Source of the DNA: Tyzzerella sp. UBA1042
Lineage (GTDB): Bacteria; Bacillota; Clostridia; Lachnospirales; Anaerotignaceae
Assembly: GCA_002316675.1 (NCBI GenBank)
Contig: DCDZ01000028.1
Coordinates: 3,002-67,001 of the forward strand
Direction of reading: 5' to 3'
DNA length: 64,000 nt
Shown: one piece after another, positions 12,545 through 30,695 of the stretch
Layout: each line of letters begins with the position of its first letter
Position numbering within the stretch: position 1 is the first letter of the stretch
Position numbers and translations under genes: made by a program
Notes under the pieces: model-generated
What the model was told of the DNA's origin: nothing
What the model saw: only the letters and a program-made list of their open reading frames with translations
Database searches by the model: none

Positions 12545-12976
12545 ATGGAATTGACACAATGTATTAATTATTTATTGACCACGGCGCAGCACTCTGTTTT
12601 TCAGCATCTTAGTGCAAAATTGACAGAATACGATATTACACCGTCCCAATACGGTGTATTAAGTTGCTTATGGCAAAGGGAATTTGCCACACCGAAGCAA
12701 ATTTCTGAAATTCTTTGCTTGGAAACTTCAACGATTTCAGGAGTATTAGACCGTATGCAAAAAAAAGGCCTTATAGATCGAGTGATCAATAAGGAGGATC
12801 GGCGTGAAGTTCGTGTTGTTCCTACGGAAAAGGGCAAGGCTCTGGAAGTGCCGATTACGAAAATTATTGATGATGTGAACGATGAGGTTTTGAAATGTTT
12901 TTCCGGAGATGAGATTGCAGTGTTAAAAAATAATTTGCGCATTATTGCGGATGGAAGTCATTTTGCAGAAGGGTAA
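12545..12976 (+). CDS. MarR family transcriptional regulator
   Basis: 143-aa winged-helix layout (ITPSQYGVLSCLW..., LDRMQKKGLIDRV...DRREV). Confidence 0.85.
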   Translation: MELTQCINYLLTTAQHSVFQHLSAKLTEYDITPSQYGVLSCLWQREFATPKQISEILCLETSTISGVLDRMQKKGLIDRVINKEDRREVRVVPTEKGKALEVPITKIIDDVNDEVLKCFSGDEIAVLKNNLRIIADGSHFAEG

Positions 12977-13064
12977 GTAGGAAAGGTAGGTCATTTGGCC
13001 TGCTTTTTTTATGTTTGGTTGCAAGTGCAGCTTGAATGCTGTTATGTATCAGGGCAAAGCCCTG

Positions 13065-13342: not shown

Positions 13343-16300
13343 GTGAATGTGATGAGAGAAAAAATATCATTAAAAAATCACAAGGGATATACATTGGTTG
13401 AAGTGCTGATTGCAGTGGCGATTATCATTATTATTAGTATCATTGCCATACCCGCAGTAGGCAGTTTGAAAAAAAGTCTGACATTAACGAAATATGATGA
13501 TACTGCACGGCAGATTTATCTGGTTTCTCAAAATAAGCTTACAACAATGAAATCCACAGGAACGTTGGGTGTTTTTTTAGATGCAGTAGAAAAAGACTAT
13601 GCAGCCCAGAAGCTTACGCAAGAGCCACAGGATTATAACGATGAAAAAACGGATTGGAAAGATCTATACTATTTTACCGATTCCGATACTGTTTTTGTAA
13701 ATTATATCATGGGTACCAGTTCTGTTTTAACGGCTTCCATGGAAAACGAAGGGCATTTTTTGGTTGAGTTGAACCCGAAAACAGGAGATGTTTACGGTGT
13801 CTTTTATGCGGAGAAAGCGTTTACATATGATGACATACAAGAACTTTTTTCCAGAGCGAAAAAAGCCCGCAAAACAAAAATGCTTGGCTATTATGGAGGT
13901 ATTTCGGAATTTTCCGCAGGGGAGGAACTGCCGACAGAGTTTACACCCACGGCAGGTATTGTGAATAAAGAGGATTTATATCTCAATATTGAATTAACGG
14001 GTATGCGACCGTTTATTAAAACACAAAATAAGCTTTTGGTATCCGTGACCGTAACGGACGAAAGCTATGATGCTGCAAAGCCCACAGAACATACCTTTAC
14101 CAAAGAATTAAAAGGCGGAACAGATTTTACAATTCAAAAGGCAAATTGCCAAATTCCGGTGCTTTTGGATAGTATCGAAGGCGGCAAGAACAGTTTTAGC
14201 AACATTACCGAGGGTAAGTTGACAGCAGGGGATAATATTCATATAACGGTATCTGTCACCTATGATGATGGAGAGGATATTCATATTACCGGCAATACCA
14301 TTGCCTCCACAAATAGTCTTTTTGCGAAAAAAGAGGTGGAAGGCGATTTAGAGGTGCAGTATGTACGTCATTTGAGGAATTTGGATGAGTCTGTTTATGA
14401 AGTAAATAAAAGTGAGGAAAGTAAGCCGATTACTGTTACCCAGACAAAACCCATTGATTATGATTATACCCAATGGGAAGATGACGCAAGAATTCCCGGA
14501 AATACAGGTGACAATCCTTATTCCGCTGACTTTGCACCTCTGAAAAACCTAAAATTATTTGACGGCATGACGTTTGATGGAAATAACAATGAAATTTTGA
14601 ACTTTAAGATATCCGGAGGCCATTATACCGGTTTATTTTCTAAATTAATAAATTCCCATATGAAAAACATGAAATTAGTCAATTTCAGTGTTACAGGGAA
14701 TTCTTATGTTGGTGCGTTGACCGGTCAGATCACAGGGGGAAGCATTACGAACTGCGGCGTATACCTAACAACGAGAAATGAATTTAATCAGCCGCTTCCG
14801 GATATGCCCGAGCGGGTTCAGCGTTATCAAGTAAAAGGGTCTCCTGAAGATTCTAGTTATGTAGGCGGCATGGTGGGGCAAGCAACCCAGCGTACTGTTA
14901 CCAAAGATTCCTTTGCTGCAATAAATGTTTCCGGTACAGCTTCTTTTATAGGAGGTTTTTGCGGACGATATGATAATGGTTCTATTACAAATTCTTATTC
15001 CTCAGGCGACGTTACCGGAGGACTTTGGTATACAGGCGGCTTTCTGGGAGAACTGAATAATTCTTCCATCAGCCAATGCTATTCTACCTCCGATGTAGTT
15101 TATGTGCTTGGTTCTGCAGGAGGGTTCGTTGGTCGTGCAGTTAACGGAAGTATTTCTGATTCCAATTCCTATGGCCTTGTGAAAAAAAAGGATGGCACTT
15201 CGGTTGTCGGGACCTCCGGAGGATTTGTAGGTGTTACGACCTCGACGATTCGTAATTGCAACTTTCTGAGGCAGCCGAACTACAATGCTGCTTATGAAAT
15301 AAGCCCTGCAGGTGTGAAGGGGCAAGGATTTTCTGGTTTAAAACCAGAAAAAGGTAATTCACCAAGTGATTGCTATCCTTATAAGGATGAATTGGTAGGC
15401 AACAGTATTCCTTTTAAAATGCTGGCGAGAGAGGGCGGGGCAATCATACCCCATTATGGTGATTGGCCGGGAGAGATGAAGCTGCAGACCTCTTTGGTAT
15501 ATTATGAAAAATATGCCACTGCCGATCAGGATGGGAATTATTACGGCTATTATGCCGAAACAAGCTTAACTGATGATGGGAGCGCATATGATTCAGGGAA
15601 AATCAATGGCTGGAGGCTAAATACTTTACGGCAGGAGCCTTGTGTTGAGGATGGGTATGCATTGATGACGATTTACGAACTAGGCGGTTTCCAATATGAG
15701 TTAAATGGGGATTTACCTAATCCAAAGAGAAATTCGGTGAAAGTTACAGATTCAGCAACGCCCACAGCCGAAGAAGCAACAAAAATTATGAATAGGGTTT
15801 CTTTGGTGTTCACCAATATTGAAGAAAGCAATATAAAGTATACCATTTCCAATGCAAGGGTTTATCGTCTGCCGTTTGCTTTGCAGATGACAGATAGAAA
15901 TACTGCGGCAAGGTTTTATGACCGGTTGGAAATCAGCTATGAAGGCAAGGGCAAAAAGACAGAAGAGTATACATTCTTCTATTGCCCTGACTTTGCAAAG
16001 AACGCCATCAATCCGGATATTAGTAGTACTGCGGCGGACACACCGCTGAATCCAACAGGGGATAAAAACCCGATTTCGGTTAGAAGCCCTCGTCATATAA
16101 ATGCTTTGGCGCGTGCGGCTTATTATTGGAACACCACAAAATGGACAGAGAGCACCGATATAAGGTATCATTTTGTGCAGGAAAATGACATTGATTTTGA
16201 ACTTTATACGAAAGAATACTGCGGAAAAAGCTATAATTTAATGGATGCTTCCAGCAAAAACACCTATAGAAACAGACCCATTGGCCGCCCTAATTCTCAG

Positions 16301-17374
16301 GCTTTTACGGATCCCAATGGGGATACCTATACACCCAGTAATTTTAGAAATCGTTATAATGGTCAAGGGTATAAGATTATAGACTATAGATGTATTACCA
16401 CAAAGGCAGATAGTTATCAGTTTACAGGGCTGTTTGGAGAAGTTCAGCAGGCAACCCTAAAAAACATTGTGATGATTGCCTCTGATCCCGAGAATGAGAG
16501 TGGATACGTTATTTCCCAATATAATGATGATAAGCATCCCGGCGTGGGAGCCTTAGTTGGTTTGGTTTATGTGGATATAGGAGGGAAGGATTACGAGGAC
16601 GGAACCCCCGCAACGGTGTCCAATTGTTCCGTGTCTGGCTACGTGGTGAGGTACGAGCCAGCTGGCGATGCAAACCATCCCAGTGCAGTGGGTGGTTTAG
16701 CAGGCTATAACTTCGGGAAAATTGAAAACAGCAGCGCAGTGAATAAGCTGGTAACTGCATCTGAAAAAGCTGGCAGACAGAACCGATATATTGGCGGTTT
16801 GGTTGGTTCTATGAATGGTCAGGGAAGTATCACAAATTGTTATGCAGGTGGTCTGGTTACAGTTGCAGATACTGGAAGACGGTCAACAAAAACAAACTTG
16901 GCAGGTATTTGTGCAGGTTTTGAAAATATCTATGGTGCATTTGATAGCAGTAGCGATAAAAGAAAAATGCTTATTAAAAACGTCTATTCCTATTGTAACC
17001 TGGAAAAAAATGAAAGAAATATGAGGACGTATGCTGTAGTAAATACCGAGGATAAGATAACTTTGTTCAGTAGAAGTGGCTATTATCTCTCCTCCAATGT
17101 GGAGAATATCACATCCTTAGAGGATAGAACTATCTCTCGAGGAATGAGCTTTGATGAATTGCGTGGGCTATCCTTCCAGGCCAGCGGCACTGCTGCGGCC
17201 TCAGGACGTGCCTCCGCAGACAATACCCATCCTTGGTCCAAGGATTTGGAATCCATTGCCTATTCTTACCCTGCAGTGGTAGTTGACCCAAGAAAGAACA
17301 ATACCACCTATGTTCATTATGGCGATTGGTCTTTGGCTAGGGATAGTGCTAGGGAGGAAAGGTTGGTACAGTGA
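13343..17374 (+). CDS. giant modular type IV pilin-like protein with a GLUG-type repeat module (candidate pilus adhesin)
   Basis: The N-terminus ...SLKNHKG|YTLVEVLIAVAIIIIISIIAIP is a prepilin cleavage/methylation motif with Glu at +5. It is followed by about 1300 aa containing about 10 spaced (Y/F)xGG(L/F/M)(V/C/L)G units (YVGALTGQ, YVGGMVGQ, FIGGFCGR, YTGGFLGE, AGGFVGR, SGGFVGV, AVGGLAGY, YIGGLVGS). The start could be GTG 13343 or ATG 13352. Confidence 0.85.
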   Translation: MNVMREKISLKNHKGYTLVEVLIAVAIIIIISIIAIPAVGSLKKSLTLTKYDDTARQIYLVSQNKLTTMKSTGTLGVFLDAVEKDYAAQKLTQEPQDYNDEKTDWKDLYYFTDSDTVFVNYIMGTSSVLTASMENEGHFLVELNPKTGDVYGVFYAEKAFTYDDIQELFSRAKKARKTKMLGYYGGISEFSAGEELPTEFTPTAGIVNKEDLYLNIELTGMRPFIKTQNKLLVSVTVTDESYDAAKPTEHTFTKELKGGTDFTIQKANCQIPVLLDSIEGGKNSFSNITEGKLTAGDNIHITVSVTYDDGEDIHITGNTIASTNSLFAKKEVEGDLEVQYVRHLRNLDESVYEVNKSEESKPITVTQTKPIDYDYTQWEDDARIPGNTGDNPYSADFAPLKNLKLFDGMTFDGNNNEILNFKISGGHYTGLFSKLINSHMKNMKLVNFSVTGNSYVGALTGQITGGSITNCGVYLTTRNEFNQPLPDMPERVQRYQVKGSPEDSSYVGGMVGQATQRTVTKDSFAAINVSGTASFIGGFCGRYDNGSITNSYSSGDVTGGLWYTGGFLGELNNSSISQCYSTSDVVYVLGSAGGFVGRAVNGSISDSNSYGLVKKKDGTSVVGTSGGFVGVTTSTIRNCNFLRQPNYNAAYEISPAGVKGQGFSGLKPEKGNSPSDCYPYKDELVGNSIPFKMLAREGGAIIPHYGDWPGEMKLQTSLVYYEKYATADQDGNYYGYYAETSLTDDGSAYDSGKINGWRLNTLRQEPCVEDGYALMTIYELGGFQYELNGDLPNPKRNSVKVTDSATPTAEEATKIMNRVSLVFTNIEESNIKYTISNARVYRLPFALQMTDRNTAARFYDRLEISYEGKGKKTEEYTFFYCPDFAKNAINPDISSTAADTPLNPTGDKNPISVRSPRHINALARAAYYWNTTKWTESTDIRYHFVQENDIDFELYTKEYCGKSYNLMDASSKNTYRNRPIGRPNSQAFTDPNGDTYTPSNFRNRYNGQGYKIIDYRCITTKADSYQFTGLFGEVQQATLKNIVMIASDPENESGYVISQYNDDKHPGVGALVGLVYVDIGGKDYEDGTPATVSNCSVSGYVVRYEPAGDANHPSAVGGLAGYNFGKIENSSAVNKLVTASEKAGRQNRYIGGLVGSMNGQGSITNCYAGGLVTVADTGRRSTKTNLAGICAGFENIYGAFDSSSDKRKMLIKNVYSYCNLEKNERNMRTYAVVNTEDKITLFSRSGYYLSSNVENITSLEDRTISRGMSFDELRGLSFQASGTAAASGRASADNTHPWSKDLESIAYSYPAVVVDPRKNNTTYVHYGDWSLARDSAREERLVQ

Positions 17375-17580
17375 GACTGTATGAGCAAGAGCGATGGAAT
17401 AATTGGAATTATTATGGAAACGGTGTCCTGTTTGACATTGGGAATACAAGCATTACAGAACTTGAAGCTCGGGGTAATCCGGTAGGAGAATATTCCTACT
17501 ATGAGTATTATGGATATGGCATTGTGTTTGACAGCGCCTTTGCAGAGTATTTATCTGATTGGGAAGCGGAATCTGTGTAG
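17371..17580 (+). CDS. small acidic Tyr/Asn/Gly-rich hypothetical protein, translationally coupled to the giant pilin gene
   Basis: The GTG start overlaps the TGA stop of the upstream gene (GTGA). It is 69 aa with no signal peptide and no recognisable motif. Confidence 0.4.
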   Translation: MRLYEQERWNNWNYYGNGVLFDIGNTSITELEARGNPVGEYSYYEYYGYGIVFDSAFAEYLSDWEAESV

Positions 17581-17832
17581 TCATTTGAATACACATCTGG
17601 ATGGAAAAAAAGAGACTGTACGGAGGCCAGTGTCGTTATCAAATTTAACATCATATACGTTGTCAAATAAAAATGCAAATGGTATAATTGTCAAAGCTTT
17701 TAGGGTTGACAGTGGATATTTAGAAAGCGTTACTGCGCGCAATCAAGAAGATGGTTCAGAGTATAAGTTTGTATGTTGTATATAGCAACAATACGTTCAC
17801 CTTCCAGTCTTAAAGAAACAGAGGTGCCTTTT

Positions 17833-18600
17833 ATGAAAAATATAAACAAAAAACTTAAAAGTGAAAAAGGTGCCTCTATCCTTCTTGCCCTCATGCTTTT
17901 TCTTGTCTGCTTTATGGTGGCCTCCGTTATTTTAAGCTCTGCCACAGCAAATGCAGATAAGCTTCACCAGCGGGAGGATAACCAAAGGGAGTATCTGTCT
18001 GTCAGTTCGGCTGCAACCCTTCTGCGGGATGTTTTGGGTGGAATAGAATATACCGGTTGGGAAAACAATAAGGTGTTTTATTATCAAGATGAGTCGGCAA
18101 TAAATTTGGGAACGCAAGAGGATATACCGGAAAAATGTGAGGCCATGGTGTATACTGAGGAGAAAGAAGCCAGAATGAGGGCAGAGCTGGAAAGAGCAAT
18201 TTATCAAGCATTTTCCTCTCATACGAAATGGTATACGAAAGTACCCGTTGCTGATGTATTGACAAAGGAGTTCGTAATATCCGGAGAGGGTATGGAGGAG
18301 ATTAAGGTTGTATTGTCTTTAGATACAAAAACCTATTATGTGACCTGCGAGCTCACGCAAAACGATAGTTCGGGAACGAACAATGCAATGACAGTGCTAT
18401 TTAAGGCGGCGGTTCACAAGGATGACTCTCCCCAAAGCCGTGAATATACGGATGAAAATTTTACATATTGGGAAGCAGTTCCTAATGCTGATGGGGAAGG
18501 CACCCACTGGGAAAGCAGGCTGTATAGAATTGTGGAATATAAAATTGTGACTAAAATCAGCTATGATGCAGGAACCATCACAAAGGGGGTATACCCTTGA
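17833..18600 (+). CDS. pilin-like minor component lacking Glu5 (PilX/GspK-like role possible)
   Basis: MKNINKKLKSEKG|ASILLALMLFLVCFMVASVIL has a basic leader, a Gly and a hydrophobic helix but no Glu at +5. The gene sits inside the pilin gene cluster. Confidence 0.6.
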   Translation: MKNINKKLKSEKGASILLALMLFLVCFMVASVILSSATANADKLHQREDNQREYLSVSSAATLLRDVLGGIEYTGWENNKVFYYQDESAINLGTQEDIPEKCEAMVYTEEKEARMRAELERAIYQAFSSHTKWYTKVPVADVLTKEFVISGEGMEEIKVVLSLDTKTYYVTCELTQNDSSGTNNAMTVLFKAAVHKDDSPQSREYTDENFTYWEAVPNADGEGTHWESRLYRIVEYKIVTKISYDAGTITKGVYP

Positions 18601-18908
18601 AATTAGAAAAAAAACGTAGAAGCATAAAAGGAGAAACACTGCTGGAAACCTTGGTCGCCATTCTTATTCTTACTATTTCCGCCATGATGCTGGCAGAGAT
18701 GACGGCTTCTTCAGTGAGAATTAACCGCACTGTAGAGAAGATAGACAAAGAATACCGGGAAAATGTGTCTGCAGCTGAAAAAAGGAAATTCTATAAAAAT
18801 GAAACGGTTACAATCAAAACAACTGATAAAGAATATACCTATAAGGTTGAATATTATGGAAAAGCAGATGGGCTAACCTCCTATAAAGCGGAGGAAGGGG
18901 AGATATGA
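18597..18908 (+). CDS. minor (pseudo)pilin
   Basis: MKLEKKRRSIKG|ETLLETLVAILILTISAMML has a prepilin-type leader with Glu at +5. The start overlaps the previous stop. Confidence 0.7.
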   Translation: MKLEKKRRSIKGETLLETLVAILILTISAMMLAEMTASSVRINRTVEKIDKEYRENVSAAEKRKFYKNETVTIKTTDKEYTYKVEYYGKADGLTSYKAEEGEI

Positions 18909-18909
18909 A

Positions 18910-19407
18910 ATGAAGGTGCTTCAAAAAATTGCAAATTGCAAGGGGTTCTCTTTGTTAGAATCTATGGCGGCATTACTCATTATCTCCATTCTAACCGTGG
19001 GAATTACCACCGGGGTAAACGCCGCATCTAAAATTTATCAACAATCCCTTTTTGTTTCCGAGGGAGACATATTGGCGGCTACGGTGGATACGGCACTATC
19101 CGATGTTCTGCGCTTTTCCTCAGAAATTAGTGAGGAAGATGGTGTGGTCAGCTTTACCAACGCAAACTACAGCGTAAAAAAGGGCCATTTGCTGTCGGAA
19201 AGCGGTTGGCTGTATTTAAATTTGCGGGGAGAGGAGGATGCACCTTTGGTTTTATTGCTGAATAATGGGGTTTATTCTTCTATGGAAATTAATTCTTTTC
19301 AACTAAGCTATGCGGAAGGTGTTTTTTCCGGCAGCTATGAAATAAAAAGCAAGAAGGATGATACGCTGGTAAAAAAGTACGCTTTTCATTTCCGCACGCT
19401 AAGCTGA
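18910..19407 (+). CDS. minor (pseudo)pilin
   Basis: MKVLQKIANCKG|FSLLESMAALLIISILTVG has the canonical G|F...E5 prepilin motif. Confidence 0.75.
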   Translation: MKVLQKIANCKGFSLLESMAALLIISILTVGITTGVNAASKIYQQSLFVSEGDILAATVDTALSDVLRFSSEISEEDGVVSFTNANYSVKKGHLLSESGWLYLNLRGEEDAPLVLLLNNGVYSSMEINSFQLSYAEGVFSGSYEIKSKKDDTLVKKYAFHFRTLS

Positions 19408-19444: not shown

Positions 19445-21160
19445 ATGAAATTCAAACGACTTGGAGATATGCTGACCTCTACGGGAATGATTACGGAGGA
19501 ACAGCTGAAAGTTGCATTAAATAAACAAAGGGATACGAAAAACCGCTTGGGGAAAGAGTTAATTGAAGAAGGCGTTATTTCTGAGGAGCAATTAATTCAT
19601 ACGCTAAAGCTTCAGCTTGGATTGGATTCCATTGATCTGTCCACGGTCAATATACCCAGTGCGCTTTCTGAAATCATTCCGAAAAAAATGGCCAATAATT
19701 ATGGCCTTGTACCTGTAAAGCAGGAGGGGGACTCTCTGTATGTGGCAATGAGCGACCCCTTGAACTTTGTTGCCCTGGAGGATGTAAAGGCAGTAAGCAA
19801 AAAGCGCATTATACCCTTAATTGCCACGGAGGAATCCATACAAAGAAATATTGGCTCCTTATATGGCAATGAGGGTGCCGCCAGAGCCATTGAAGAAATG
19901 AAGCGAGAGATGAATGATGCCCCTGCGGCCGTTATTTTTGGCGATTCGTTCCTTTCCAATAACATAGATAACGATGAACAGTCTGCCCCAACCATTCGTT
20001 TGGTGAACTCCTTAATTGAACGTGCGGTATCGGAGCGTGCCAGTGATATTCATATTGAGCCTGCGGAAAATGAGGTTCGTGTGAGAATGCGTATTGACGG
20101 CTTGCTTCGTCAGATTATGATTGTGCCGAAGGATTTACAGTCCTCGGTCATTTCCCGCCTTAAAATTATGGGCGGCATGGATATTACAGAACGCAGAATC
20201 CCCCAAGACGGACGCTCTAACGCTAAGGTGAAAAAAGCGGATATCGACTTGCGTATGTCGACCTTGCCCACCATTTACGGAGAAAAACTGGTAATCCGTC
20301 TTTTGGATAAAAACACACAGCTTTTGGATAAAGCGAAAATCGGCTTGACAGGGGAGGATTTGGAGAAATATATGCGGCTGATCAACCAAAAGGGCGGCGG
20401 CGTGGTTTTGATTGCCGGTCCCACAGGCTCCGGTAAATCCTCCACACTGTATACAATGATTCGTGAACTAAATACAGAGCAAAGCAATCTGATTACATTG
20501 GAAGATCCTGTGGAATATAATATTGCCGGCATCAATCAAGTGCAAATTAACGAAAAAACAGGAATGACCTTTAGCGGAGGCCTGCGGGCAATCCTAAGGC
20601 AGGATCCGGATATTATTGCGGTGGGCGAAATCCGTGACGGCGAAACGGCGGAAATTGCCATGCGTGCGGCAATTACGGGGCATTTGGTATTATCTACCAT
20701 CCATACCAATAGCTCCATAGCCACCTTGGACCGCCTTTTGGATATCGGTGTTGAGCCCTATCTTATTTCCAGTGCCCTCAATGGCGTTGTTTCCCAGCGT
20801 CTTGTGCGTAGAATCTGCCCCCATTGCCGTAAGGAATATGAGCCTACCCAAGAGGAGCTGGCCAGCATTGGCCTTTCCCATGAAAACCACGGTTTTTATC
20901 ATGGCGAGGGCTGTCCCATGTGCTTTGGTACGGGATATCGGGGGAGAGTGGCAGTTTTTGAAATTTTGGTTATGGATAGAAAAGTAAAGAATGCCATATC
21001 AAGCGGTGCAAAAAGAGAAGAATTGGCGGAAATTATACACAGCCATAAAGGCTTTGTTGCCCTAGCAGATAATTGTCGCAGGCTTGTTTTGGAAGGTGTA
21101 ACCACTGTTGAGGAGGCAAAAAGAATTACGAATTCAGAGGATTATGAATATGAAAGTTAA
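19445..21160 (+). CDS. pilB: type IV pilus assembly ATPase PilB (GspE family)
   Basis: N-terminal T2SSE_N-like repeat (ITEEQLKVAL...), Walker A GPTGSGKSST, Asp and His boxes, and a CPHC...CPMC tetracysteine motif. Confidence 0.92.
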   Translation: MKFKRLGDMLTSTGMITEEQLKVALNKQRDTKNRLGKELIEEGVISEEQLIHTLKLQLGLDSIDLSTVNIPSALSEIIPKKMANNYGLVPVKQEGDSLYVAMSDPLNFVALEDVKAVSKKRIIPLIATEESIQRNIGSLYGNEGAARAIEEMKREMNDAPAAVIFGDSFLSNNIDNDEQSAPTIRLVNSLIERAVSERASDIHIEPAENEVRVRMRIDGLLRQIMIVPKDLQSSVISRLKIMGGMDITERRIPQDGRSNAKVKKADIDLRMSTLPTIYGEKLVIRLLDKNTQLLDKAKIGLTGEDLEKYMRLINQKGGGVVLIAGPTGSGKSSTLYTMIRELNTEQSNLITLEDPVEYNIAGINQVQINEKTGMTFSGGLRAILRQDPDIIAVGEIRDGETAEIAMRAAITGHLVLSTIHTNSSIATLDRLLDIGVEPYLISSALNGVVSQRLVRRICPHCRKEYEPTQEELASIGLSHENHGFYHGEGCPMCFGTGYRGRVAVFEILVMDRKVKNAISSGAKREELAEIIHSHKGFVALADNCRRLVLEGVTTVEEAKRITNSEDYEYES

Positions 21161-22196
21161 TGAACTGATTGTATATGCAAATAATAAAAAGGCCTCGGAT
21201 ATTCACTTGATTTTCGGGCTGCCGCCCAAATGCCGTGTGGCAGGCCGCTTGGAATCTATGGCTGATTTTATTCTAAATGATGATGACTGTGACAATTACG
21301 CTATGGAATTAGCTAGATATAGATATGACGATTTTTTGGAAATCGGCGAAATGGACTTAGCAAGAACCATTGAAGGGGTGCGTGTGCGTATCAATTTATT
21401 CAGACAGCAGGATCATACCTCTGTAGTAATCCGCCTTTTGAATGATAAAATCCCCATGCTGGAAAGCTTGGGCTTGCCCGACGGCGTAGAAAGATTAACC
21501 GAGTTAAAAAGAGGCATTGTAATTGTAACAGGGCAGACGGGTTCGGGTAAATCCACCACCCTTGCCTCCCTCATTGACCGCATCAATCACACAAGGGATT
21601 GTCATGTCATTACCCTGGAAGACCCCATAGAATATATCTATGAGCCGGATTTATCTATTTTTAACCAAAGGGAAATCGGGCGGGATACAAAATCCTATGA
21701 ATCCGGGCTTCGTTCTGTTTTGAGAGAAGACCCCGATGTTATCCTAATCGGGGAAATGCGGGATACCATTACCATGGAAACTGCCCTAAAGGCGGCGGAA
21801 ACAGGGCATCTTGTGCTGACTACATTGCATACCGGCTCTGCCTCGGAGGTGGTGGATCGAATTGTGGATTCCTTCCCCGAAGCAAGGCAGCAGCAAATAC
21901 GTTTACAGCTGTCTCTGACGTTAATGGCGGTTTTGGCACAACAGCTTTTGCCGAAAAAAGACGGAACAGGGCGCATTGCCGCCTGCGAATTTATGCCCAT
22001 CAATGCCGCCATCAGAAATCTGATTCGTGAGGGGAAATCCCCCCAGATTGATAACGTGATTTCTACCTCGGCGGAGAAAGGCGCCGTTACCATGGATAAT
22101 GCAATCATTAAGCTGTACCGGGATAAAAAAATCTCTAGCAGAACGGCGTTGTTTGCGGCAAAAAACTTAGAGTTTGTGAAACGAAACATCACTTAA
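21144..22196 (+). CDS. pilT: type IV pilus retraction ATPase PilT
   Basis: ASDIHL, Walker A GQTGSGKSTT, IGEMRD, and GHLVLTTLHT. It is short and lacks the GspE N-domain. The start overlaps the pilB end. Confidence 0.9.
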   Translation: MNMKVNELIVYANNKKASDIHLIFGLPPKCRVAGRLESMADFILNDDDCDNYAMELARYRYDDFLEIGEMDLARTIEGVRVRINLFRQQDHTSVVIRLLNDKIPMLESLGLPDGVERLTELKRGIVIVTGQTGSGKSTTLASLIDRINHTRDCHVITLEDPIEYIYEPDLSIFNQREIGRDTKSYESGLRSVLREDPDVILIGEMRDTITMETALKAAETGHLVLTTLHTGSASEVVDRIVDSFPEARQQQIRLQLSLTLMAVLAQQLLPKKDGTGRIAACEFMPINAAIRNLIREGKSPQIDNVISTSAEKGAVTMDNAIIKLYRDKKISSRTALFAAKNLEFVKRNIT

Positions 22197-22230: not shown

Positions 22231-23427
22231 TTGCTTACCTATAAATATAAGGCGGTTTCAAAAAAAGGCGCAGAAATTGAAGGTTATATAGAGGCTTTTA
22301 ATGAGTATGAGGCAATCAATAAAATTAAAGAAAGCTGTGATATTGTAACAAGCATTTCCGAGGTTCGTATGGGGAAGGGCATTGAGGTTACAGGTAAAAT
22401 CAATGAAAAAGCTCTGGCCATTCTTTGCTCTCAGCTCTCCATCATTGTGGGGGCGGGGCTTCCGGTGCTTCGTGCCGTGGAAATGATTGCCGCCCAAACG
22501 GAGAATAAAAAATTGAAAACAATCATGGAGGGTGTCTCCAAGGATGTGGCATCGGGGGGAAGCCTTGCTAAAAGCTTTGAGACAAAAGGCCCGGGCTTGC
22601 CCATCACCTTTGTGGAAACCATTCGCTCCGGCGAGGAATCGGGTACTTTGGAGCATTCCTTCAACCGCTTGCATGATTATTATGATAAAACGGCAAAAAT
22701 GAAGGGTAAAGTAAAAAATGCTATGGTTTATCCCACCTTTACCATGATTGTCGCCATTGCAGTTATTGTCATTATCATGGTGAAGGCGGTGCCTGTTTTT
22801 ACCAGCAGCTTTGGAGAGATGGGGGTAGAGCTTCCCCTCCCCACAAGAATGCTGATTGGTATATCCAATTTCTTTGTGGAATATTGGCTTGCCTTGGTGG
22901 CGGTAATCGCCTTTGCCCTTGTGATATATAAGCTGTATGAGAAGCGAAAGGAAAACCGCTTGAAGCTAGAGCGCTTGAAGCTTCGCATCCCTTTGTTTGG
23001 AAAGCTTGCAGCCCTCAAGCAGGCCTCCCAATTTGCGGCAACCATGTCTACCCTTTTGGGAGCGGGCTTGCCTGTGGTAGAGGCAGTTTCTATCACGGGA
23101 AAGGTCATTGATAACGAATATATCGGCAATCAAGTGCTGGAAACGGTGTCTATGCTGGAGGAAGGCAAACGCCTTGGCGATAGCTTACATACCCGAACGG
23201 AGCTGCCCCAGCTGTTGGTGGAAATGACGGCGGTGGGGGAGGAAACTGGTTCCCTTGAGACAACCTTGGATACCATTGGGGACTTTTACGACAATGAAAT
23301 TGATACAGCCACCTCAAGGATGGTAACCCTTCTGGAGCCTATCATCATTTGTGTGCTGGCGGTCATCGTTTTGTTTATCCTCATTTCCGTTTATGCCCCT
23401 ATGTTCTCTCTCTATGGAGGGATATAA
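22231..23427 (+). CDS. pilC: type IV pilus platform protein PilC (GspF family)
   Basis: Two GspF-like repeats (GLPVLRAVEM... / GLPVVEAVSI...) and three TM segments. TTG start. Confidence 0.9.
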   Translation: MLTYKYKAVSKKGAEIEGYIEAFNEYEAINKIKESCDIVTSISEVRMGKGIEVTGKINEKALAILCSQLSIIVGAGLPVLRAVEMIAAQTENKKLKTIMEGVSKDVASGGSLAKSFETKGPGLPITFVETIRSGEESGTLEHSFNRLHDYYDKTAKMKGKVKNAMVYPTFTMIVAIAVIVIIMVKAVPVFTSSFGEMGVELPLPTRMLIGISNFFVEYWLALVAVIAFALVIYKLYEKRKENRLKLERLKLRIPLFGKLAALKQASQFAATMSTLLGAGLPVVEAVSITGKVIDNEYIGNQVLETVSMLEEGKRLGDSLHTRTELPQLLVEMTAVGEETGSLETTLDTIGDFYDNEIDTATSRMVTLLEPIIICVLAVIVLFILISVYAPMFSLYGGI

Positions 23428-23601: not shown

Positions 23602-23997
23602 ATGAAGAGTATGTTGAAAAGAAAAAATAAAAAAGGCTTTACGCTGATGGAGATGCTGATTGTTGTGGGTATTATTGCGATTTTGGTAGCAATTGCCATC
23701 CCGACGTTCGGCGGCGCACAGAAGAAGGCAAAATATGCTGCAGACATAGCGAATGTTAGGGCATGGTATGCGGAACAGCTGGTGAATGATATGACAGAGG
23801 GAGATGGCTTCACTGAAAAATCATTTTCGGAAGAGAATTCAGATACTGATGAACTCAAGCTCCAGATGAAGGGTGCTACTGCAGAGGCAACTGGCACGAC
23901 TGCTGAAACATTCAAGGTGGTTTATGATCCAAATGGCGACGGAACAGAGGATGAGGGAGACTTCCCATCGGTTACATTCCCTTCGGATGCTGACTAA
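23602..23997 (+). CDS. pilA: major type IV pilin
   Basis: MKSMLKRKNKKG|FTLMEMLIVVGIIAILVAIAIPTF has the canonical motif. The protein is small (131 aa), has a strong AAGGAGG RBS, and is followed by a strong terminator. Confidence 0.9.
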   Translation: MKSMLKRKNKKGFTLMEMLIVVGIIAILVAIAIPTFGGAQKKAKYAADIANVRAWYAEQLVNDMTEGDGFTEKSFSEENSDTDELKLQMKGATAEATGTTAETFKVVYDPNGDGTEDEGDFPSVTFPSDAD

Positions 23998-24141: not shown

Positions 24142-24951
24142 ATGCTTTTGTTTGAACAATTCAATTTTATTTATGTATACATATTCGTCCTAGCCTTTAT
24201 GATTGGGGCAGTTATGGGCAGTTTCATCAACTGCGTGGCGTGGCGCATATCCCATGGGGAGGATTTCATCCATGGCAGAAGTCATTGCACCACTTGCGGA
24301 CACACCCTCACACCCTTGGAACTGATGCCTATTGTATCTTTTCTGATACAGAAGGGGCGAAGCCGTTGTTGTAATGAAAAAATTTCTTTGCGCTATCCTG
24401 CTACGGAGCTTTTGACGGCTCTGGTGTTTGTGGCTTTGGTTTTTAAATTTGGCTTCAGCTTAGACACCCTGCAATTTATGGTGTTATCCCTGCTTTTGCT
24501 GGCGGTTTCCTTGGTGGATTTGGAAACAGGGCTGATTCCCGATGGTTTTATTTTAGCTGGAATTCTAAATTTTGTTTTGTTTACTATCCTAAAGGGTGGT
24601 ATGATTTTTACAGGGCTTCTGCACGGTGCCCTTGGCGGTTTCTCCATCTCCGTACCCATTTTACTCCTTTCCCTTTTGATGGATAAGGTGTTGCAAAAAG
24701 AGAGCATGGGCGGCGGAGACATTAAGCTGTATTTTATGACAGGGCTTTATTTCAGTATCAAGGCCAATGTTTTGTTGGTTTTGCTGTCTTGTGTTTTTGG
24801 GATTGCCTTTACCCTTATTTTTCAAAGCATTCGGGTGGGGGAGAAGGAAAATCCACTGGCGTTTCCCTTTGGGCCGTCCATCGCCATGGCGGCAATGGTT
24901 TCTGTGTTTTTGGCAGAGCCGATTTTGCAATTTTATATGAGTTTATTTTAA
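24142..24951 (+). CDS. pilD: prepilin peptidase (A24 family) PilD
   Basis: Polytopic membrane protein with CxxC...CxxC near the N-terminus and a GGGDIKL active-site motif. Confidence 0.9.
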   Translation: MLLFEQFNFIYVYIFVLAFMIGAVMGSFINCVAWRISHGEDFIHGRSHCTTCGHTLTPLELMPIVSFLIQKGRSRCCNEKISLRYPATELLTALVFVALVFKFGFSLDTLQFMVLSLLLLAVSLVDLETGLIPDGFILAGILNFVLFTILKGGMIFTGLLHGALGGFSISVPILLLSLLMDKVLQKESMGGGDIKLYFMTGLYFSIKANVLLVLLSCVFGIAFTLIFQSIRVGEKENPLAFPFGPSIAMAAMVSVFLAEPILQFYMSLF

Positions 24952-25066: not shown

Positions 25067-26062
25067 ATGTCCAAGGGATATACGGCAATACAAATTGGGG
25101 AGAGTACCATTAAGATGGTTCAAGTTAGTGATGGCAAGGCAGTAAAAACTGTTCTGGAAGCTACCCCGGACAATTTGGTGCGGGACGGGCATATCTTGTC
25201 CTTTGAAGCACTGGCGGAAATTTTGAAAAGCATGGCAAGGGATAATCAAATGCGAAACCGCAATGCGGTGGTGGTTTTGCCCTTGGAAAATTGTTATTTG
25301 CGGCGCACCAGTATGCCCTATATGACGGTAGACCAATTAAAATTGAACCTGCCCTATGAATTCAGAGATTATATTCATGCCGACCGCGAGGATTATTTTT
25401 ATGACTATGCCGTTGTAGGGCAGGAAACCGACGAAGCGGGTGAAATGAAATCACTGGATTTGCTCATTGCGGCGGTAAAAAATGAATTGATCGAAAAATA
25501 TATGAAGATTTTGACCTTTGCCGGCTTTAAGCTGAAAATCGCATTGCCCGATGCCTGTGCCTTTCGCAATATCATCCGGCAGTATGAGGAAAATAATGAA
25601 GAACACCCGGCGGCGTATTGCATTGTAGACTTGGGACATTCCTCCATTCGGGTACATTTATATAACGGGAGCGTTTACGAAACCACCAGAGTCATTGAAT
25701 ATGGCGGCGTCACCCTAGATTCTCTGATTGCAGAGGAGATGGATGTGGATGTACATATTGCTTCTTCCTATAAAGTGAAAAACTATAATCAGGTGCAGGA
25801 ATTAGAGGCCTGCAAAGAAATTTATGATAAAATGATTGTGGAGCTTTTCCGCTCCATCAATTTTTACAATTATAATAACCCCGACAGCGAATTGAAGGAT
25901 ATTTATTTTTGTGGCGGCTTGGCAAAGATCACACCCTTTATGGATATGGTGCGTTCCGCCTTGGAGGTGCGATGCCATACCATTGGCGAACTGATGGAGG
26001 AAGCAGAACAGGATGATACTTTGGAGTTGATTTGTGCCGCAATTGGCGCAACGCTGCAGTAG
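25067..26062 (+). CDS. pilM: type IV pilus assembly protein PilM (actin-like ATPase fold)
   Basis: 331 aa. Position and size match PilM, and it has IVDLGHSSIRV and FCGGLAKI motifs typical of the FtsA/PilM fold. Confidence 0.8.
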   Translation: MSKGYTAIQIGESTIKMVQVSDGKAVKTVLEATPDNLVRDGHILSFEALAEILKSMARDNQMRNRNAVVVLPLENCYLRRTSMPYMTVDQLKLNLPYEFRDYIHADREDYFYDYAVVGQETDEAGEMKSLDLLIAAVKNELIEKYMKILTFAGFKLKIALPDACAFRNIIRQYEENNEEHPAAYCIVDLGHSSIRVHLYNGSVYETTRVIEYGGVTLDSLIAEEMDVDVHIASSYKVKNYNQVQELEACKEIYDKMIVELFRSINFYNYNNPDSELKDIYFCGGLAKITPFMDMVRSALEVRCHTIGELMEEAEQDDTLELICAAIGATLQ

Positions 26063-26065
26063 GGG

Positions 26066-26677
26066 GTGAGAGCTTTGCAGTTAAATAAAAAAATTGGTGT
26101 GAGATATCCCACAAAAACGAATATGAACCTTGCCGTGCGGGAGACAAAGGGTGTTGATAGAAGGTCGGTGCTTCCGATCGGCATTTTTCTGGCAATCGCA
26201 GTGCTGGCTTTTGCAAAATTGGCTGTTTTTGATTTGTTCCATGCCGTGGATTTGGCGGAGGAAAACGTGCGTCTGACCCAGCAGCAGCTTGACCAAATGA
26301 AAGAGGCAAACTCCATTTATGATGAAGTTTTGAAGGAATATAACGAAAGTGTTTCTTTGAGTATTTCTTCACCGGTGATTGCAACGCTTTCCGAAAGGCT
26401 TGAAATTGTGAATCAGTATTTGATTTCCAATGCCAAGGTGGAATCCTTTAATGTTTTGGATGATGTGATTACGGCGCAAATTTCCGGCGTTACCTTAAAT
26501 CAAGTTTCCGGCATTTATACAGCCTTGATGGCCAATGAATTTGTTTCCAATGTACAGTTTTATACGGCAAGTACGGAGAATGAAACCGGCTCTCTGACAA
26601 CTGCAACAATGACCATTATCCTTACGGCCAATGAAGCTGTAGCCGAGGAACAGGCGGAAGGAGGCGAGGCACAATGA
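26066..26677 (+). CDS. PilN-like bitopic pilus alignment protein
   Basis: Short cytoplasmic N-terminus, one TM segment ([21 protein letters not shown]), then a coiled coil. It lies immediately after pilM. Assigned by architecture and position only. Confidence 0.55.
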
Positions 26678-27231
26678 TCTCCAAGTCTTTTACAAAACGG
26701 GAAAAGGTTTTGCTTGTCATTTTAATTGTTATTTTGCTTTCTGCGGTGTATTATTTTGCCGTGGCACGCCCTTCCATGAACCGTATTTCCGTAGCAGGCG
26801 ACCAAACAATGGCATTGCAGGATGAAATTACACTGGAAATGGCAAAGCTTACGAAAATAAAAGAGATGCAGGCAAAAATTGAAGAGGCAGCCTTAACGGA
26901 GCGCTTTAAAACCAGTATTCCCGATTACGATAATTTGGAAAATGTGATGAAGCAGTTGGATACAGTTTTAAGCAGCTCCACAGACTATAAGCTTTCGTTT
27001 TCACCAACCACGGAGGAAAGCGGCTTGCTTTATCGGCCCATTGATGTGGAGTTTGACTGTGCAAATTATGGGACTGCCCGAAGCATTATAGATAAAATTT
27101 ATGCCAGTCCGTTTAAAAGCATGATTGATACCCTCAGTGTGGATAATACGGAATATAAGGAAACGGATATTACCACTTCTCCCGTAAAGGTTACCATGAC
27201 GGTAATTTTTATCGAAAAGAAGACAAGCTAG
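26674..27231 (+). CDS. PilO-like bitopic pilus alignment protein
   Basis: One TM segment ([19 protein letters not shown]) plus a coiled coil. The start overlaps the previous stop. Assigned by architecture and position only. Confidence 0.5.
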
Positions 27232-27596: not shown

Positions 27597-28751
27597 ATGA
27601 AAAGAATGGATTTTTCATTAACGAGAGAACAAGAAATGTTAAAAAAACTTGCTCGCCAATTCGCCGAAGCAGAATTGGAGCCCGTTGCAGAAGAAGTTGA
27701 TCGAGAGCATATTTTCCCGGCTGAAAACTTTAAAAAGATGGCAGCCATTGGTTTGACAGGAATCGGCGTTCCCAAAGAGTATGGCGGTTCCTGCGGAGGT
27801 ACATTGGAAAAAGTCATTGCAGTTTCCGAATTTGCGAAAAAATGTATGGCCTCCGCATCTATTTTATCAATTCATTTGATTGCTCCCCAAGCAATCTACA
27901 AATATGGCACCAGAGAGCAAAAGGAAAAATATCTTCCTCGTTTGACCAAAGGCGGAGAATTGGGTGCCTTTGCTTTAACGGAACCCAATGCAGGTTCTGA
28001 TGCTGCCGGCGTGAAAACAACAGCCATTTTTGATCCAAATACCAATGAATATGTTTTAAACGGAACAAAATGCTTTATTTCCGGCGGAAGCAGAGCAGGT
28101 GTTTTGGTCGTTTTTGTGTTGACTGCGCCGAAAAAAGGCTTGAAAGGAATGTCTGCGTTAATTGTGGAAAAAGGAACCCCCGGTTTCACCATTGGTAAAA
28201 TTGAATCCAAAATGGGTATTGCCGGTTCGGAAACAGCGGAGCTTATTTTTGAGGACTGTCGTGTTCCTGCGGAGAACCTTTTGGGAAAGGAAGGCAAAGG
28301 CTTTAAAATTGCTATGGAAGCCTTGGACGGTGCCAGAATCGGCGTAGGTGCACAGTCAATCGGCATTGCGGAAGGCGCCATTGATTTATCTGTAAAATAT
28401 GTTTACGAACGGATTCAATTTGGTAAGCCCATTGCGAATTTACAGGGCATTCAATGGTATATTGCAGATATGGCAACAAAGACCGCAGCAGCAAGGGCGC
28501 TGGTAGAATATGCGGCTTATCTTGAGGATGCAGGCAAGCCTTTTACAATGGAATCCGCCATGTGTAAGCTGAATGCATCAGAAAATGCACGCTTCGTTAC
28601 CAACTTGGCATTACAAATTCATGGCGGCTATGGATATATGAAGGATTATCCTTTGGAGCGGATGTATCGTGATGCAAAGATTACGGAGATTTATGAAGGA
28701 ACCTCGGAAATACATAAGGTTGTAATTGCCAGAGAGGTAATGAAAAGATAA
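27597..28751 (+). CDS. acyl-CoA dehydrogenase (butyryl/propionyl-CoA dehydrogenase type)
   Basis: 384 aa with FALTEPNAGSD, a GFKIAM..LDGARIG layout and a YEGTSEI C-terminal motif. EtfB and EtfA follow directly. Confidence 0.9.
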   Translation: MKRMDFSLTREQEMLKKLARQFAEAELEPVAEEVDREHIFPAENFKKMAAIGLTGIGVPKEYGGSCGGTLEKVIAVSEFAKKCMASASILSIHLIAPQAIYKYGTREQKEKYLPRLTKGGELGAFALTEPNAGSDAAGVKTTAIFDPNTNEYVLNGTKCFISGGSRAGVLVVFVLTAPKKGLKGMSALIVEKGTPGFTIGKIESKMGIAGSETAELIFEDCRVPAENLLGKEGKGFKIAMEALDGARIGVGAQSIGIAEGAIDLSVKYVYERIQFGKPIANLQGIQWYIADMATKTAAARALVEYAAYLEDAGKPFTMESAMCKLNASENARFVTNLALQIHGGYGYMKDYPLERMYRDAKITEIYEGTSEIHKVVIAREVMKR

Positions 28752-28766
28752 GAAGGAGTGTATAGG

Positions 28767-29570
28767 ATGAGAATTTATGTTTGTGTAAAACAGGTTCCGG
28801 ACACATCCGGAAAGGTTGCCGTAAACCCCGATGGAACATTAAACCGTGCCTCCATGACAGCAATCATCAATCCGGATGATATGAGTGCCATTGAGCAGGC
28901 CTTAAAATTAAAGGATGAAACGGGATGTCAAGTGACTGCTGTTACCATGGGGCCGCCTCCTGCGGAAGGAATGCTGCGAGAAATGATTGCTATGGGTGCT
29001 GATGACGGGGTTTTAATTTCCGCCAGAGAATTTGGCGGTTCCGATACTTTCGCAACATCTCAGATCATTGCAGCGGCTCTTTGCAAATTAGGACTTGGCA
29101 AGGAAGATATGATTTTCTGCGGCAGACAGGCTATTGATGGCGACACGGCACAGGTTGGCCCACAGATTGCTGAGAAATTAGATATTCCTCAGGTGACTTA
29201 TGCCTCGGCCATTAAAAAAAGCGGAAACAGCATTTTGGTGAAACGGATGCTGGAGGACGGATACATGATGATCGAGGTGAATACACCTTGCTTAATTACC
29301 TGTATTAAAGATAAAACGGTGACACCGCGCTATATGACATTGAATGGAATTATGGAATGCTATAGCAAGCCCCTTGCGGTTTTGGATTTTGAGGCCCTTA
29401 AGGATGAACCGCTGATTGAGCTGGATACCATTGGTCTGAAAGGATCCCCTACAAATATTTTCAAGTCCTTCACCCCGCCGCAAAAGGGTGTGGGCGTTAT
29501 GCTGCAGGGCACAGACAAAGAAAAAGTTGATGATTTGGTGGACAGATTGATGAAGAAGTATGTCATTTAA
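28767..29570 (+). CDS. etfB: electron transfer flavoprotein beta subunit
   Basis: MRIYVCVKQVPDTSGKVAV is the typical EtfB N-terminus. CGRQAIDGDTAQVGPQIAEKLDIPQVTY is also present. Confidence 0.9.
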   Translation: MRIYVCVKQVPDTSGKVAVNPDGTLNRASMTAIINPDDMSAIEQALKLKDETGCQVTAVTMGPPPAEGMLREMIAMGADDGVLISAREFGGSDTFATSQIIAAALCKLGLGKEDMIFCGRQAIDGDTAQVGPQIAEKLDIPQVTYASAIKKSGNSILVKRMLEDGYMMIEVNTPCLITCIKDKTVTPRYMTLNGIMECYSKPLAVLDFEALKDEPLIELDTIGLKGSPTNIFKSFTPPQKGVGVMLQGTDKEKVDDLVDRLMKKYVI

Positions 29571-29591
29571 CCGAAGGGAGATGGGCGAAGT

Positions 29592-30695
29592 ATGGCTTTC
29601 AATAGTGCGGATATAAATTCGTTTCAGGATATTTGGGTATTTTGTGAGCAGAGAGAGGGAAAGCTGGTAAACACGGATTTTGAATTAATCTCAGAAGGCA
29701 GAAAATTGGCTGACGAACGTGGGTCTAAGCTTGTCGGCATTTTGCTTGGGCACAAGGTAGGAGAGATTGCCAAGGAATTGGGTGGATATGGCGCGGATAA
29801 AATCATTGTTTGTGACCATCCGGACTTGAAATTTTACACCACAGATGCATATGCAAGGGTGCTTTGTGATGCGGTTATGGAGGAAAAGCCCGAAGTTATT
29901 TTAATCGGCGCTACCAATATTGGGCGTGATCTGGGGCCAAGATGCGCGGCACGCTTACATACCGGCTTGACAGCGGATTGTACGCATCTGGATATTGATA
30001 TGAAGAAATATGTGGATTTTCTTTCTACATCCTCTACCTTGGATGTCGCATCTATGTCGTTCCCCATGGCGGACACAAATTTGAAAATGACACGTCCGGC
30101 GTTCGGCGGACATTTGATGGCAACGATTATTTGCCCTCGTTTTCGTCCTTGTATGTCTACAGTGCGTCCGGGGGTAATGAAGAAATCAGAGTTTAGTCAG
30201 GCAAAGGCGGATGCGTGTGAAATTGAATTGCGTCAGGTTGCTCTTTCTAAAGAGGATTTGAAAACAAAGGTAGTCGACATCGTGAAGGAAGCGAAAAAAA
30301 TCGTTGATTTAATCGGTGCAGAAATCATTGTCTCCGTAGGACGTGGTATCAGTAAGGATGTGGAAGGAGGCATTGCTCTGGCAGAAAAGCTGGCTGATGC
30401 CTTTGGAAATGGCGTTGTGGGCGGTTCTCGTGCGGTAATTGATTCCGGTTGGCTTCCTGCGGATCATCAGGTTGGTCAAACGGGAAAGACTGTTCACCCG
30501 AAGGTATATGTTGCGCTAGGTATTTCCGGTGCAATTCAGCATAAAGCAGGTATGCAGGATTCTGAATTGATTATTGCGGTGAATAAAGATGAAACAGCAC
30601 CTATTTTTGACTGTGCGGATTATGGAATAACAGGAGATTTGTTTCAGATCGTTCCGATGATGATCGAGGCAGTAATAGAAGGAAAAAATGCATAA
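29592..30695 (+). CDS. etfA: electron transfer flavoprotein alpha subunit
   Basis: Contains the FAD-binding C-terminal motifs VGQTGKTVHPKVYVALGISGAIQH and IIAVNKDETAPIF. Confidence 0.9.
   Translation: MAFNSADINSFQDIWVFCEQREGKLVNTDFELISEGRKLADERGSKLVGILLGHKVGEIAKELGGYGADKIIVCDHPDLKFYTTDAYARVLCDAVMEEKPEVILIGATNIGRDLGPRCAARLHTGLTADCTHLDIDMKKYVDFLSTSSTLDVASMSFPMADTNLKMTRPAFGGHLMATIICPRFRPCMSTVRPGVMKKSEFSQAKADACEIELRQVALSKEDLKTKVVDIVKEAKKIVDLIGAEIIVSVGRGISKDVEGGIALAEKLADAFGNGVVGGSRAVIDSGWLPADHQVGQTGKTVHPKVYVALGISGAIQHKAGMQDSELIIAVNKDETAPIFDCADYGITGDLFQIVPMMIEAVIEGKNA

Follow-up and report, generated by a model that had tools for sequence, protein, structure and literature searches.

A candidate giant modular pilin with IgA1-protease-like beta-helix modules in a Clostridial type IV pilus operon

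The gene and the operon that it heads

Type IV pili have hardly been studied in gut Clostridia. The gene considered here lies in a stretch of 64,000 nt from Tyzzerella sp. UBA1042 (contig DCDZ01000028.1), called the window below, and occupies 13343..17374 on the + strand as an open reading frame (ORF) of 1343 codons counted from GTG 13343. An initial annotation of the same DNA had read its product as a modular type IV pilin with a GLUG-type beta-helix. That core reading has held: signal peptide, alpha1 helix, operon content, linkage in relatives and predicted fold all agree with it. To it can be added a second GLUG module, an internal duplication and a decayed C-terminal tail.

The true start of the gene is probably ATG 13352, with a Shine-Dalgarno-like purine run (GAGAG) 8 nt 5' of it, which gives a product of 1340 amino acids (aa). 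Public gene calls yield the identical 1340-aa protein (P0001), present on five public contigs. Residues are numbered from this ATG, that is, ORF numbering minus 3, except where stated. The N-terminus, MREKISLKNHKG|YTLVEVLIAVAIIIIISIIAIPAV, consists of a leader peptide (13352..13387, +) ending in Gly-1, followed by a mature segment with Glu+5 and Pro+22. The class III signal peptide with Glu5, already recognized in the initial annotation, is that of a type IV pilin: Pfam N_methyl (PF07963) scores 26.1 bits against a cut-off of 21.2, NCBIfam TIGR02532 scores 16.8 against 16.3, and the family alignment places the leader in the same way. Cleavage by the prepilin peptidase PilD is predicted between Gly-1 and Tyr+1. 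The Tyr itself, which had also been pointed out, reflects a clade-level change from Phe to Tyr in the family alignment, where relatives have Phe, His or Met.

The residues on both sides of the predicted cleavage site vary in the family. P0014 has His and P0068 has Met at +1, while Ala replaces Gly at -1 throughout a large sub-clade of giant pilins (P0024-P0043; KQN[SKR]A|FTLMEM). In the mutagenesis of Pseudomonas pilin by Strom and Lory, substitutions at +1 reportedly did not block cleavage.

With this gene begins a complete type IV pilus operon of the Clostridial kind, whose downstream pilus genes are all on the + strand. Upstream, a terminator-like hairpin at 12977..13012 (+; a pattern match from a consensus scan) follows a MarR-family gene (12545-12976; Pfam MarR match) and suggests that the giant pilin gene starts a new transcription unit. 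Immediately downstream are a 255-aa pilin-like protein without Glu5 (17833..18600, +; KG|ASILLALM), a 103-aa minor pilin (18597..18908, +; KG|ETLLE) and a 165-aa minor pilin (18910..19407, +; KG|FSLLE). The first is recognized by its N-terminus and linkage, and the other two by Pfam N_methyl and conserved linkage, with the N-terminus in addition for the 103-aa protein. Beyond N_methyl, Pfam returned no match for these small proteins, and none at all for the 255-aa one. Lacking Glu5, the 255-aa protein may be a capping subunit like GspK or PilX, and with the giant pilin and the other two small proteins, all of which have Glu5, it makes up a minor-pilin set with one Glu5-less subunit, as in the GspHIJK or FimU-PilVWX tip (priming) complex. 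The 103-aa protein has Glu at +1 as well as at +5; the residue is unusual at +1 and is kept in relatives (KG|ESLVE).

The giant pilin is encoded alongside both a prepilin peptidase and the filament assembly machinery. The operon continues on the + strand with the assembly ATPase PilB (19445-21160; Pfam T2SSE and MshEN), the retraction ATPase PilT (21108-22196; Pfam T2SSE), the platform protein PilC (22231-23427; Pfam T2SSF), a 131-aa pilin (23602..23997; KG|FTLMEML; Pfam N_methyl E = 5e-9), PilD (24142..24951; Pfam A24_N_bact and Peptidase_A24), PilM (25067-26062; Pfam PilM_2), a PilN-like protein (26066-26677; synteny) and a PilO-like protein (26674-27231; weak T2SSM match on the ortholog, and synteny). 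By size and position the 131-aa protein is the candidate major pilin. As called mechanically from TTG 21108, the PilT frame overlaps the end of pilB by 53 nt (21108-21160); its real start is probably an internal Met (MKVNELIVYANNKK...), giving about 348 aa as in Anaerotignum propionicum.

Predicted domains and the decayed C-terminal tail

Two AlphaFold2 models, built on alignments of 37-38 family members, cover the protein. Mean predicted local distance difference test (pLDDT) values are 89.1 for residues 1-708 and 85.7 for residues 697-1340, the latter model having a predicted template modelling score (pTM) of 0.90. The predicted order is an alpha1 helix, a small pilin head, a beta-sandwich, beta-helix 1, a second beta-sandwich, a linker and beta-helix 2. 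The pilin module (13388..13906, +) is delimited by the models, by invariant columns and by profile matches in the Protein Data Bank (PDB). Its predicted alpha1 helix spans residues 15-69 (55 residues) and includes Glu5 and Pro22 of the mature protein, and the strands of the head lie at 106-109, 135-141, 146-153 and 179-182, in a block whose pLDDT is mostly 75-90. The modelled shape is pilin-like: an extended alpha1 of some 50 residues stands out from a small alpha-beta head, whose sheet is antiparallel. The head motifs GDVYGVFY and GYYGG are invariant across the giant-pilin family and define it. A low-confidence linker (residues 185-191) follows the pilin module (1-185), and the protein thereby has the pilin module, linker and non-pilus domains of a modular pilin in the sense of Raynaud et al. 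2021.

Searched against the PDB, the pilin-module profile matched about twenty solved type IV pilins via alpha1N, including Streptococcus sanguinis PilE1, PpdD and GspG, and only the match to Dichelobacter nodosus FimA (13-136) extended past alpha1. Since the matches are otherwise confined to alpha1, the head is not assignable to the H, I, J or K type. The whole giant pilin, compared by sequence, gave alpha1N matches only (Geopilin, PilA) and one marginal match. When the head, both beta-sandwiches and the 255-aa neighbor were scanned separately with Pfam, nothing but N_methyl rose above threshold.

The beta-rich remainder is predicted to begin with an Ig/FN3-like beta-sandwich spacer at residues 200-321 (13949..14314, +), modelled at a pLDDT of about 90 and with secondary Foldseek matches to FN3/Ig-like domains. 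The second beta-sandwich (the 'LVYYEKY' domain, residues 709-877; 15476..15982, +) is likewise a prediction of AlphaFold (strands 13-181 of the model) and has weak Foldseek matches to the archaellins 9eq7 and 5ya6 (E = 0.06-0.3).

The GLUG assignment is well above threshold, with Pfam Glug (PF07581) matching at E = 3.7e-24 and 83.8 bits (cut-off 20.5) over six significant stretches. A loose motif scan places ten units at 451, 502, 531, 559, 587, 620 and 1063, 1111, 1145, 1181, in line with the approximate count in the initial annotation. Neighboring units lie 28-36 residues apart, or 48-51 across an inserted loop, rather than the 20-25 first given, and they form not one module but two, about 440 residues apart. 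Module 1 (residues ~333-705; 14348..15466, +) runs from a VRHLRNL N-cap through six units to a terminal HYGDW (701-705). Module 2 (residues ~940-1326; 16169..17329, +) runs from a SPRHINAL N-cap through four units to a terminal HYGDW (1322-1326). The first rung of each is GLF-type. Self-comparison identifies 391-708 and 990-1329 (in ORF numbering from the GTG) as ancient duplicates with 21.5% identity, HYGDW ending both, and this pentapeptide closes each GLUG module throughout the family. Short regular strands run across 333-660 and 940-1326 in the models, and the prediction for both modules is a right-handed beta-helix of the GLUG / Peptidase_M26_N kind.

Structural comparison points to a particular relative. 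In Foldseek searches of the PDB, the Streptococcus pneumoniae IgA1 protease came top for the module 1 half (7uvl/6xja, E = 1e-4) and for the module 2 half (7uvl, E = 2.8e-7), its chains 7uvl, 6xja, 7jgj and 6xjb ranking first for both halves, with Ig/FN3 domains and pectate lyases far lower. The nearest structure is its N-terminal domain, which consists of a small subdomain and a compact beta-helix, folds independently, contacts the IgA1 Fab and gates the active site; the catalytic residues lie outside the beta-helix, in the middle and C-terminal domains (PMC7695701). Pfam Peptidase_M26_N (PF05342) is matched on close homologs and was not reported for the giant pilin itself at E <= 1. Identity as an M26 IgA1-specific metalloendopeptidase can be ruled out: HExxH occurs in 0 of 71 homologs and Peptidase_M26_C is absent from the Pfam results on the giant pilin, where only Glug and N_methyl were reported, so the protein is not an M26 protease and carries the binding-type module only.

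The initial annotation took the stop at 17372-17374 for the end of the gene. It is instead a secondary stop, with the remnant of a C-terminal domain of about 145 aa continuing to about 17810 (17345..17810, +), as recovered by three-frame translation, tblastn with ortholog tails and a homopolymer check. In orthologs of 1474-1486 aa, about 145 further residues behind the second HYGDW make up this domain (GKVG..KLY ... YG[IV]VFDSAFAE.LS.WEA ... NNTFT[FY]). It is intact in P0006, P0013 and P0014, and the 1900-aa forms also end with an intact copy. In the window it is interrupted four times: the frame shifts between 17344 and 17356, again between 17607 and 17624 (next to the A7 run at 17605) and a third time between 17770 and 17778, and an in-frame nonsense codon stands at 17578-17580. 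From the end of the remnant to the next gene there are 23 nt, as for the intact gene in A. propionicum.

Several explanations of these lesions can be set aside. Sequencing error is unlikely because the same truncated product stands on five contigs, one of them a SPAdes assembly, and because 17 of 17 syntenic neighbors match A. propionicum gene lengths. Phase variation was rejected since only one lesion adjoins a homopolymer (the A7 at 17605) and another is a plain nonsense codon, and programmed frameshifting since the three shifts differ in sign and a stop accompanies them. The 465-nt tail holds four lesions and the 4020-nt body none, where the tail's density would predict about 35. Several family members (P0029, P0037, P0040 and P0041) end naturally directly after the second HYGDW. 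A lesion-free body and relatives with this natural end argue for the loss of one accessory domain at its boundary, not for the death of the gene.

A consensus scan found no terminator-like site in the remnant. Within it, at 17660-17688 (+) and some 145 nt before the gene for the 255-aa minor pilin, is a near-consensus sigma-70-like promoter match (TTGTCA-17-TATAAT, 11 of 12 positions, extended-10 TG). This is a pattern match; from such a site the pilus genes further downstream might be expressed separately from the giant pilin.

Family size and conserved linkage

The whole region, flanks included, is syntenic with A. propionicum, where the ortholog has 1925 aa and a third supermodule and is likewise followed by proteins of ~255, ~100 and ~170 aa in that order. 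Measured against that species, the 11 pilus genes downstream in the window are all full-length, and the body of the giant pilin is 57-62% identical to its orthologs over 99% of its length. The same operon is kept in a 36%-identical relative with unrelated flanks; in relatives at 22-25% identity, the giant pilin and its small partners are placed after pilMNO. The gene is therefore first in its locus, as initially described, in the Anaerotignum-type operon but not in these other lineages.

A locus scan with one genome per species found 49 loci, of which 43 were analyzed. The 49 are spread over Anaerotignum, Ca. Metalachnospira, Flintibacter, Lawsonibacter, Agathobacter, other Lachnospiraceae and Oscillospiraceae, Christensenellaceae and a few metagenome-assembled genomes (MAGs) labelled Coriobacteriia. 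In about 35 of the 43, a homolog of the 255-aa protein lies directly 3' of a giant pilin of 984-2200 aa, with pilus machinery within 10 kb. That protein lacks Glu5 in all four lineages inspected. The pattern of Glu5 in giant and minor pilins is the same in three of the loci (L001, L002 and L003), whose versions of the 255-aa protein (L001 15803-16582, L002 16111-16875, L003 16756-17385) belong to a conserved set of relatives of about 210-260 aa that carry G|AS(I/L)L.AL and always come next after the giant pilin.

Not every copy is linked in this way. Some paralogs in rabbit-gut MAGs lie away from pilus genes (L038, L042, L046, L050). Paralogous giant pilins of about 1660-1770 aa occur two to three per genome, as in one rabbit-gut MAG (L042, L049, L050) and another (L046, L047), and in such multi-paralog genomes one giant pilin adjoins the pilus operon while the rest are unlinked. 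A regular expression did not find HYGDW in the rabbit-gut paralogs L042, L046, L047, L049 and L050.

A profile of the pilin head collects at least 969 clusters (50% identity) with representatives at E <= 1e-30 and lengths up to 4920 aa, the number of supermodules ranging from one to at least three. Among 21 sampled members, N_methyl is found in 17 and Glug in 8, and some also carry Flg_new (Listeria-Bacteroides repeat), Big_2 or Beta_helix domains. The longest proteins with this head are P0126 (4920 aa), P0095 (4537 aa) and P0104 (4052 aa); we know of no described pilin of 4000-4900 residues, or near it.

A proposed tip adhesin, its rivals and its relatives

We propose, with a probability of about 0.62, that the product is a giant modular minor pilin, displayed as an adhesin at the tip of a Clostridial (Anaerotignum-type) type IV pilus. 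After Sec-dependent insertion, PilD would remove the 12-residue leader behind Gly and methylate Tyr+1, and the 55-residue alpha1 helix and small head would then behave as an ordinary pilin. The giant pilin and the three small minor pilins would together make up the priming complex for pilus assembly, capped by the 255-aa subunit without Glu5 as its uppermost member. Because such a complex starts assembly, which proceeds from tip to base, the giant pilin would end at the distal tip, and a chain of rigid beta domains of about 1150 residues would project from there as an effector. The beta-helix of the pneumococcal IgA1 protease binds Fab without catalytic residues, and by this analogy the modules may be read as ligand-binding (adhesive) surfaces rather than enzymes; retraction driven by PilT would pull the cell towards a bound target. 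In the strain at hand, a further C-terminal domain has been lost by frameshift exactly at a domain boundary, at the end point natural to some relatives. The scheme mirrors, by analogy, the logic of S. sanguinis PilA-PilB-PilC and of GspHIJK/PilY1 (PMC8179133, PMC9934059).

A number of points weigh against this proposal. Literature searches for GLUG pilins, giant pilins and the pili of Anaerotignum found nothing specific. A subunit of about 150 kDa would have to cross the Gram-positive cell wall. The head could be linked by sequence to no named minor-pilin family; with one exception, the matches from PDB and NCBIfam end inside alpha1. The matches to IgA1 protease have low template modelling (TM) scores, 0.26-0.32 over the query, because the proteins compared are multi-domain. 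Loss of the C-terminal domain could also impair function in this strain. As for the wall, it can be speculated that a thin, elongated beta-helix rod may have a shape suited to pushing through it ahead of the filament.

Three other accounts of the gene can be envisioned. One holds that this is a surface protein whose class III signal serves only PilD-dependent membrane anchoring or a short pseudopilus, never an extended pilus, much as in type II secretion system (T2SS) pseudopilins or the archaeal 'bindosome' proteins that bear class III signals. A mass of about 150 kDa, with relatives of up to 4920 aa, is hard to fit into ordinary filament packing, and both the unlinked rabbit-gut paralogs and the head without a match to a named minor-pilin family would sit well with such an anchor. 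Nevertheless, placement at the tip requires no lateral packing (PMC9934059). The repeated tight linkage to minor pilins and to PilB, PilT, PilC and PilM-O in two operon layouts, the presence in the operon of PilT, which is typical of retractile pili, and the retention of Glu5 and Pro22, important for filament incorporation, also speak for a true pilus subunit, and we regard a mere anchor as unlikely. In the second account the protein is a pilus-borne enzyme, its beta-helices forming an M26-like protease or, in the manner of pectate lyases and phage tailspikes, a lyase or hydrolase of polysaccharides. The match of close homologs to Peptidase_M26_N invites this idea, as does the reading of the IPR012902-IPR011493 architecture as a predicted peptidase (Raynaud et al. 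2021), and pectate lyases are among the weaker Foldseek matches (7xks, 1vbl, 1bn8). These lyase matches are weak, however (E = 0.01-0.6, probabilities 0.06-0.57), the catalytic motif and the C-terminal peptidase domain are missing as described above, and in IgA1 protease itself the beta-helix only binds and gates the substrate while catalysis takes place elsewhere (PMC7695701). An enzyme at the pilus tip accordingly seems improbable.

We think it equally improbable that the gene is becoming a pseudogene, with the frameshifted tail as the mark of a non-functional locus. Three frameshifts and a stop in 465 nt past residue 1331 are what decay would look like, and the recurrence of the truncated product among intact neighbors disfavors the benign explanation of sequencing error. 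The 1340 preceding codons are nonetheless intact and 57-62% identical to their orthologs, the lesions expected in the body at the tail's density are absent, the downstream pilus genes are full-length, the remnant contains no terminator-like site, and other members of the family end naturally at the same boundary. The tip-displayed minor pilin remains our preferred reading of the gene.

As to precedent, the experimentally characterized modular pilins PilB (vWA module) and PilC (lectin module) of S. sanguinis, modelled as a tip complex with adhesive modules (PMC8179133, PMC9934059), are the natural comparison. Like the giant pilin, they combine a class III signal with a small pilin module, a short linker and a bulky effector, and they belong to a monoderm type IV pilus operon with a small Glu5-less minor pilin, a kind of subunit that stands at the top of the tip complex (PMC9934059). 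The effector of the giant pilin, known from sequence and models, is 2.5-3 times larger (about 1150 residues in two beta-sandwich plus beta-helix supermodules), and its predicted fold is a GLUG/M26_N beta-helix rather than vWA or lectin. The minor pilin genes number four here and three in S. sanguinis, and no sequence similarity was detected outside alpha1N.

IPR011493 we take to be the InterPro GLUG motif entry. On that understanding, the combination of N_methyl and GLUG is already catalogued: Dataset S1 of Raynaud et al. 2021 lists the IPR012902-IPR011493 architecture for six proteins and discusses it as an 'M26 peptidase' modular pilin, the most extreme case highlighted there having 860 residues. 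The architecture, whose module size and repeat type the initial annotation had called unusual, is not unprecedented. The family described here lacks the catalytic domain and HExxH, which corrects the earlier M26 peptidase label. Its size, the two- and three-module organization, the HYGDW cap and the operon linkage are not found in that work. What is new, then, is that the module is, on the models, of the non-catalytic IgA1-protease N-domain type; that one to three or more supermodules, all of them ending in HYGDW, are set on a distinctive conserved pilin head; and that the head defines a large family tied to a four-gene minor-pilin block, of which the copy in the window has lost the C-terminal domain.

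The N-terminal domain of IgA1 protease (6XJA, 6XJB, 7JGJ, 7UVL) shares with the giant pilin the GLUG/Peptidase_M26_N motifs and, as the models have it, a compact right-handed beta-helix behind a small beta subdomain. It differs in what surrounds it: the giant pilin has no middle or C-terminal catalytic domains, HExxH, LPXTG or G5 regions, its module sits on a pilin rather than on the cell wall, and identity in the structural alignments is 11-15%.

Enterotoxigenic Escherichia coli CofB, Vibrio cholerae TcpB, Thermus ComZ and T2SS GspK, like the giant pilin, also join a pilin module to added beta-rich domains. These proteins have about 300-550 residues and single added modules of unrelated folds, and to our knowledge GLUG beta-helices occur in none of them. 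A tip location and binding of ligand or DNA have been proposed for them (PMC8179133).

A more distant parallel is PilY1/PilC of diderm type IVa pili, a very large tip effector that acts with FimU-PilVWX (GspHIJK-like), four minor pilins of which one lacks Glu5, as here. PilY1 is not a pilin and has a C-terminal beta-propeller, whereas the effector of the giant pilin is covalently fused to its pilin module and predicted to be built of beta-helices. PilY1 is absent from monoderms (PMC9934059), so the giant-pilin family may fill the same role. A bolder version, in which the head-defined family of about 1000 clusters is the monoderm counterpart of PilY1 and its beta-helices bind host IgA or IgA-coated mucus, is a long shot. 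Were it true, gut Clostridia would hold on to or sense secretory IgA via retractile pili, and both the differing supermodule counts and the loss of a domain in the window would reflect host-driven diversification.

Many Anaerotignum, Lachnospiraceae and Oscillospiraceae species encode a protein of 1000-2000 residues, with a conserved pilin head and a predicted beta-helix, among their minor pilins. If the tip-adhesin reading is correct, the family amounts to a catalogue of colonization factors of commensal anaerobes, and the modular pilin principle reaches far larger cargo than the S. sanguinis examples. The gene in the window is itself one truncated member of this family, and the modular pilin concept is already established; a pilus specialist should find the protein's size, how common it is in gut Clostridia and the likeness of its modules to IgA1 protease noteworthy rather than startling.

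Directly after the pilus operon, 27597-30695 holds an acyl-CoA dehydrogenase gene, supported via its L001 ortholog, followed by ORFs at 28758-29570 and 29592-30695 that by a look at their sequences resemble the beta and alpha subunits of electron-transfer flavoprotein. In keeping with the taxonomic placement to which synteny points, this set of genes recalls the acryloyl-CoA reductase complex of the acrylate pathway in Anaerotignum (Clostridium) propionicum.

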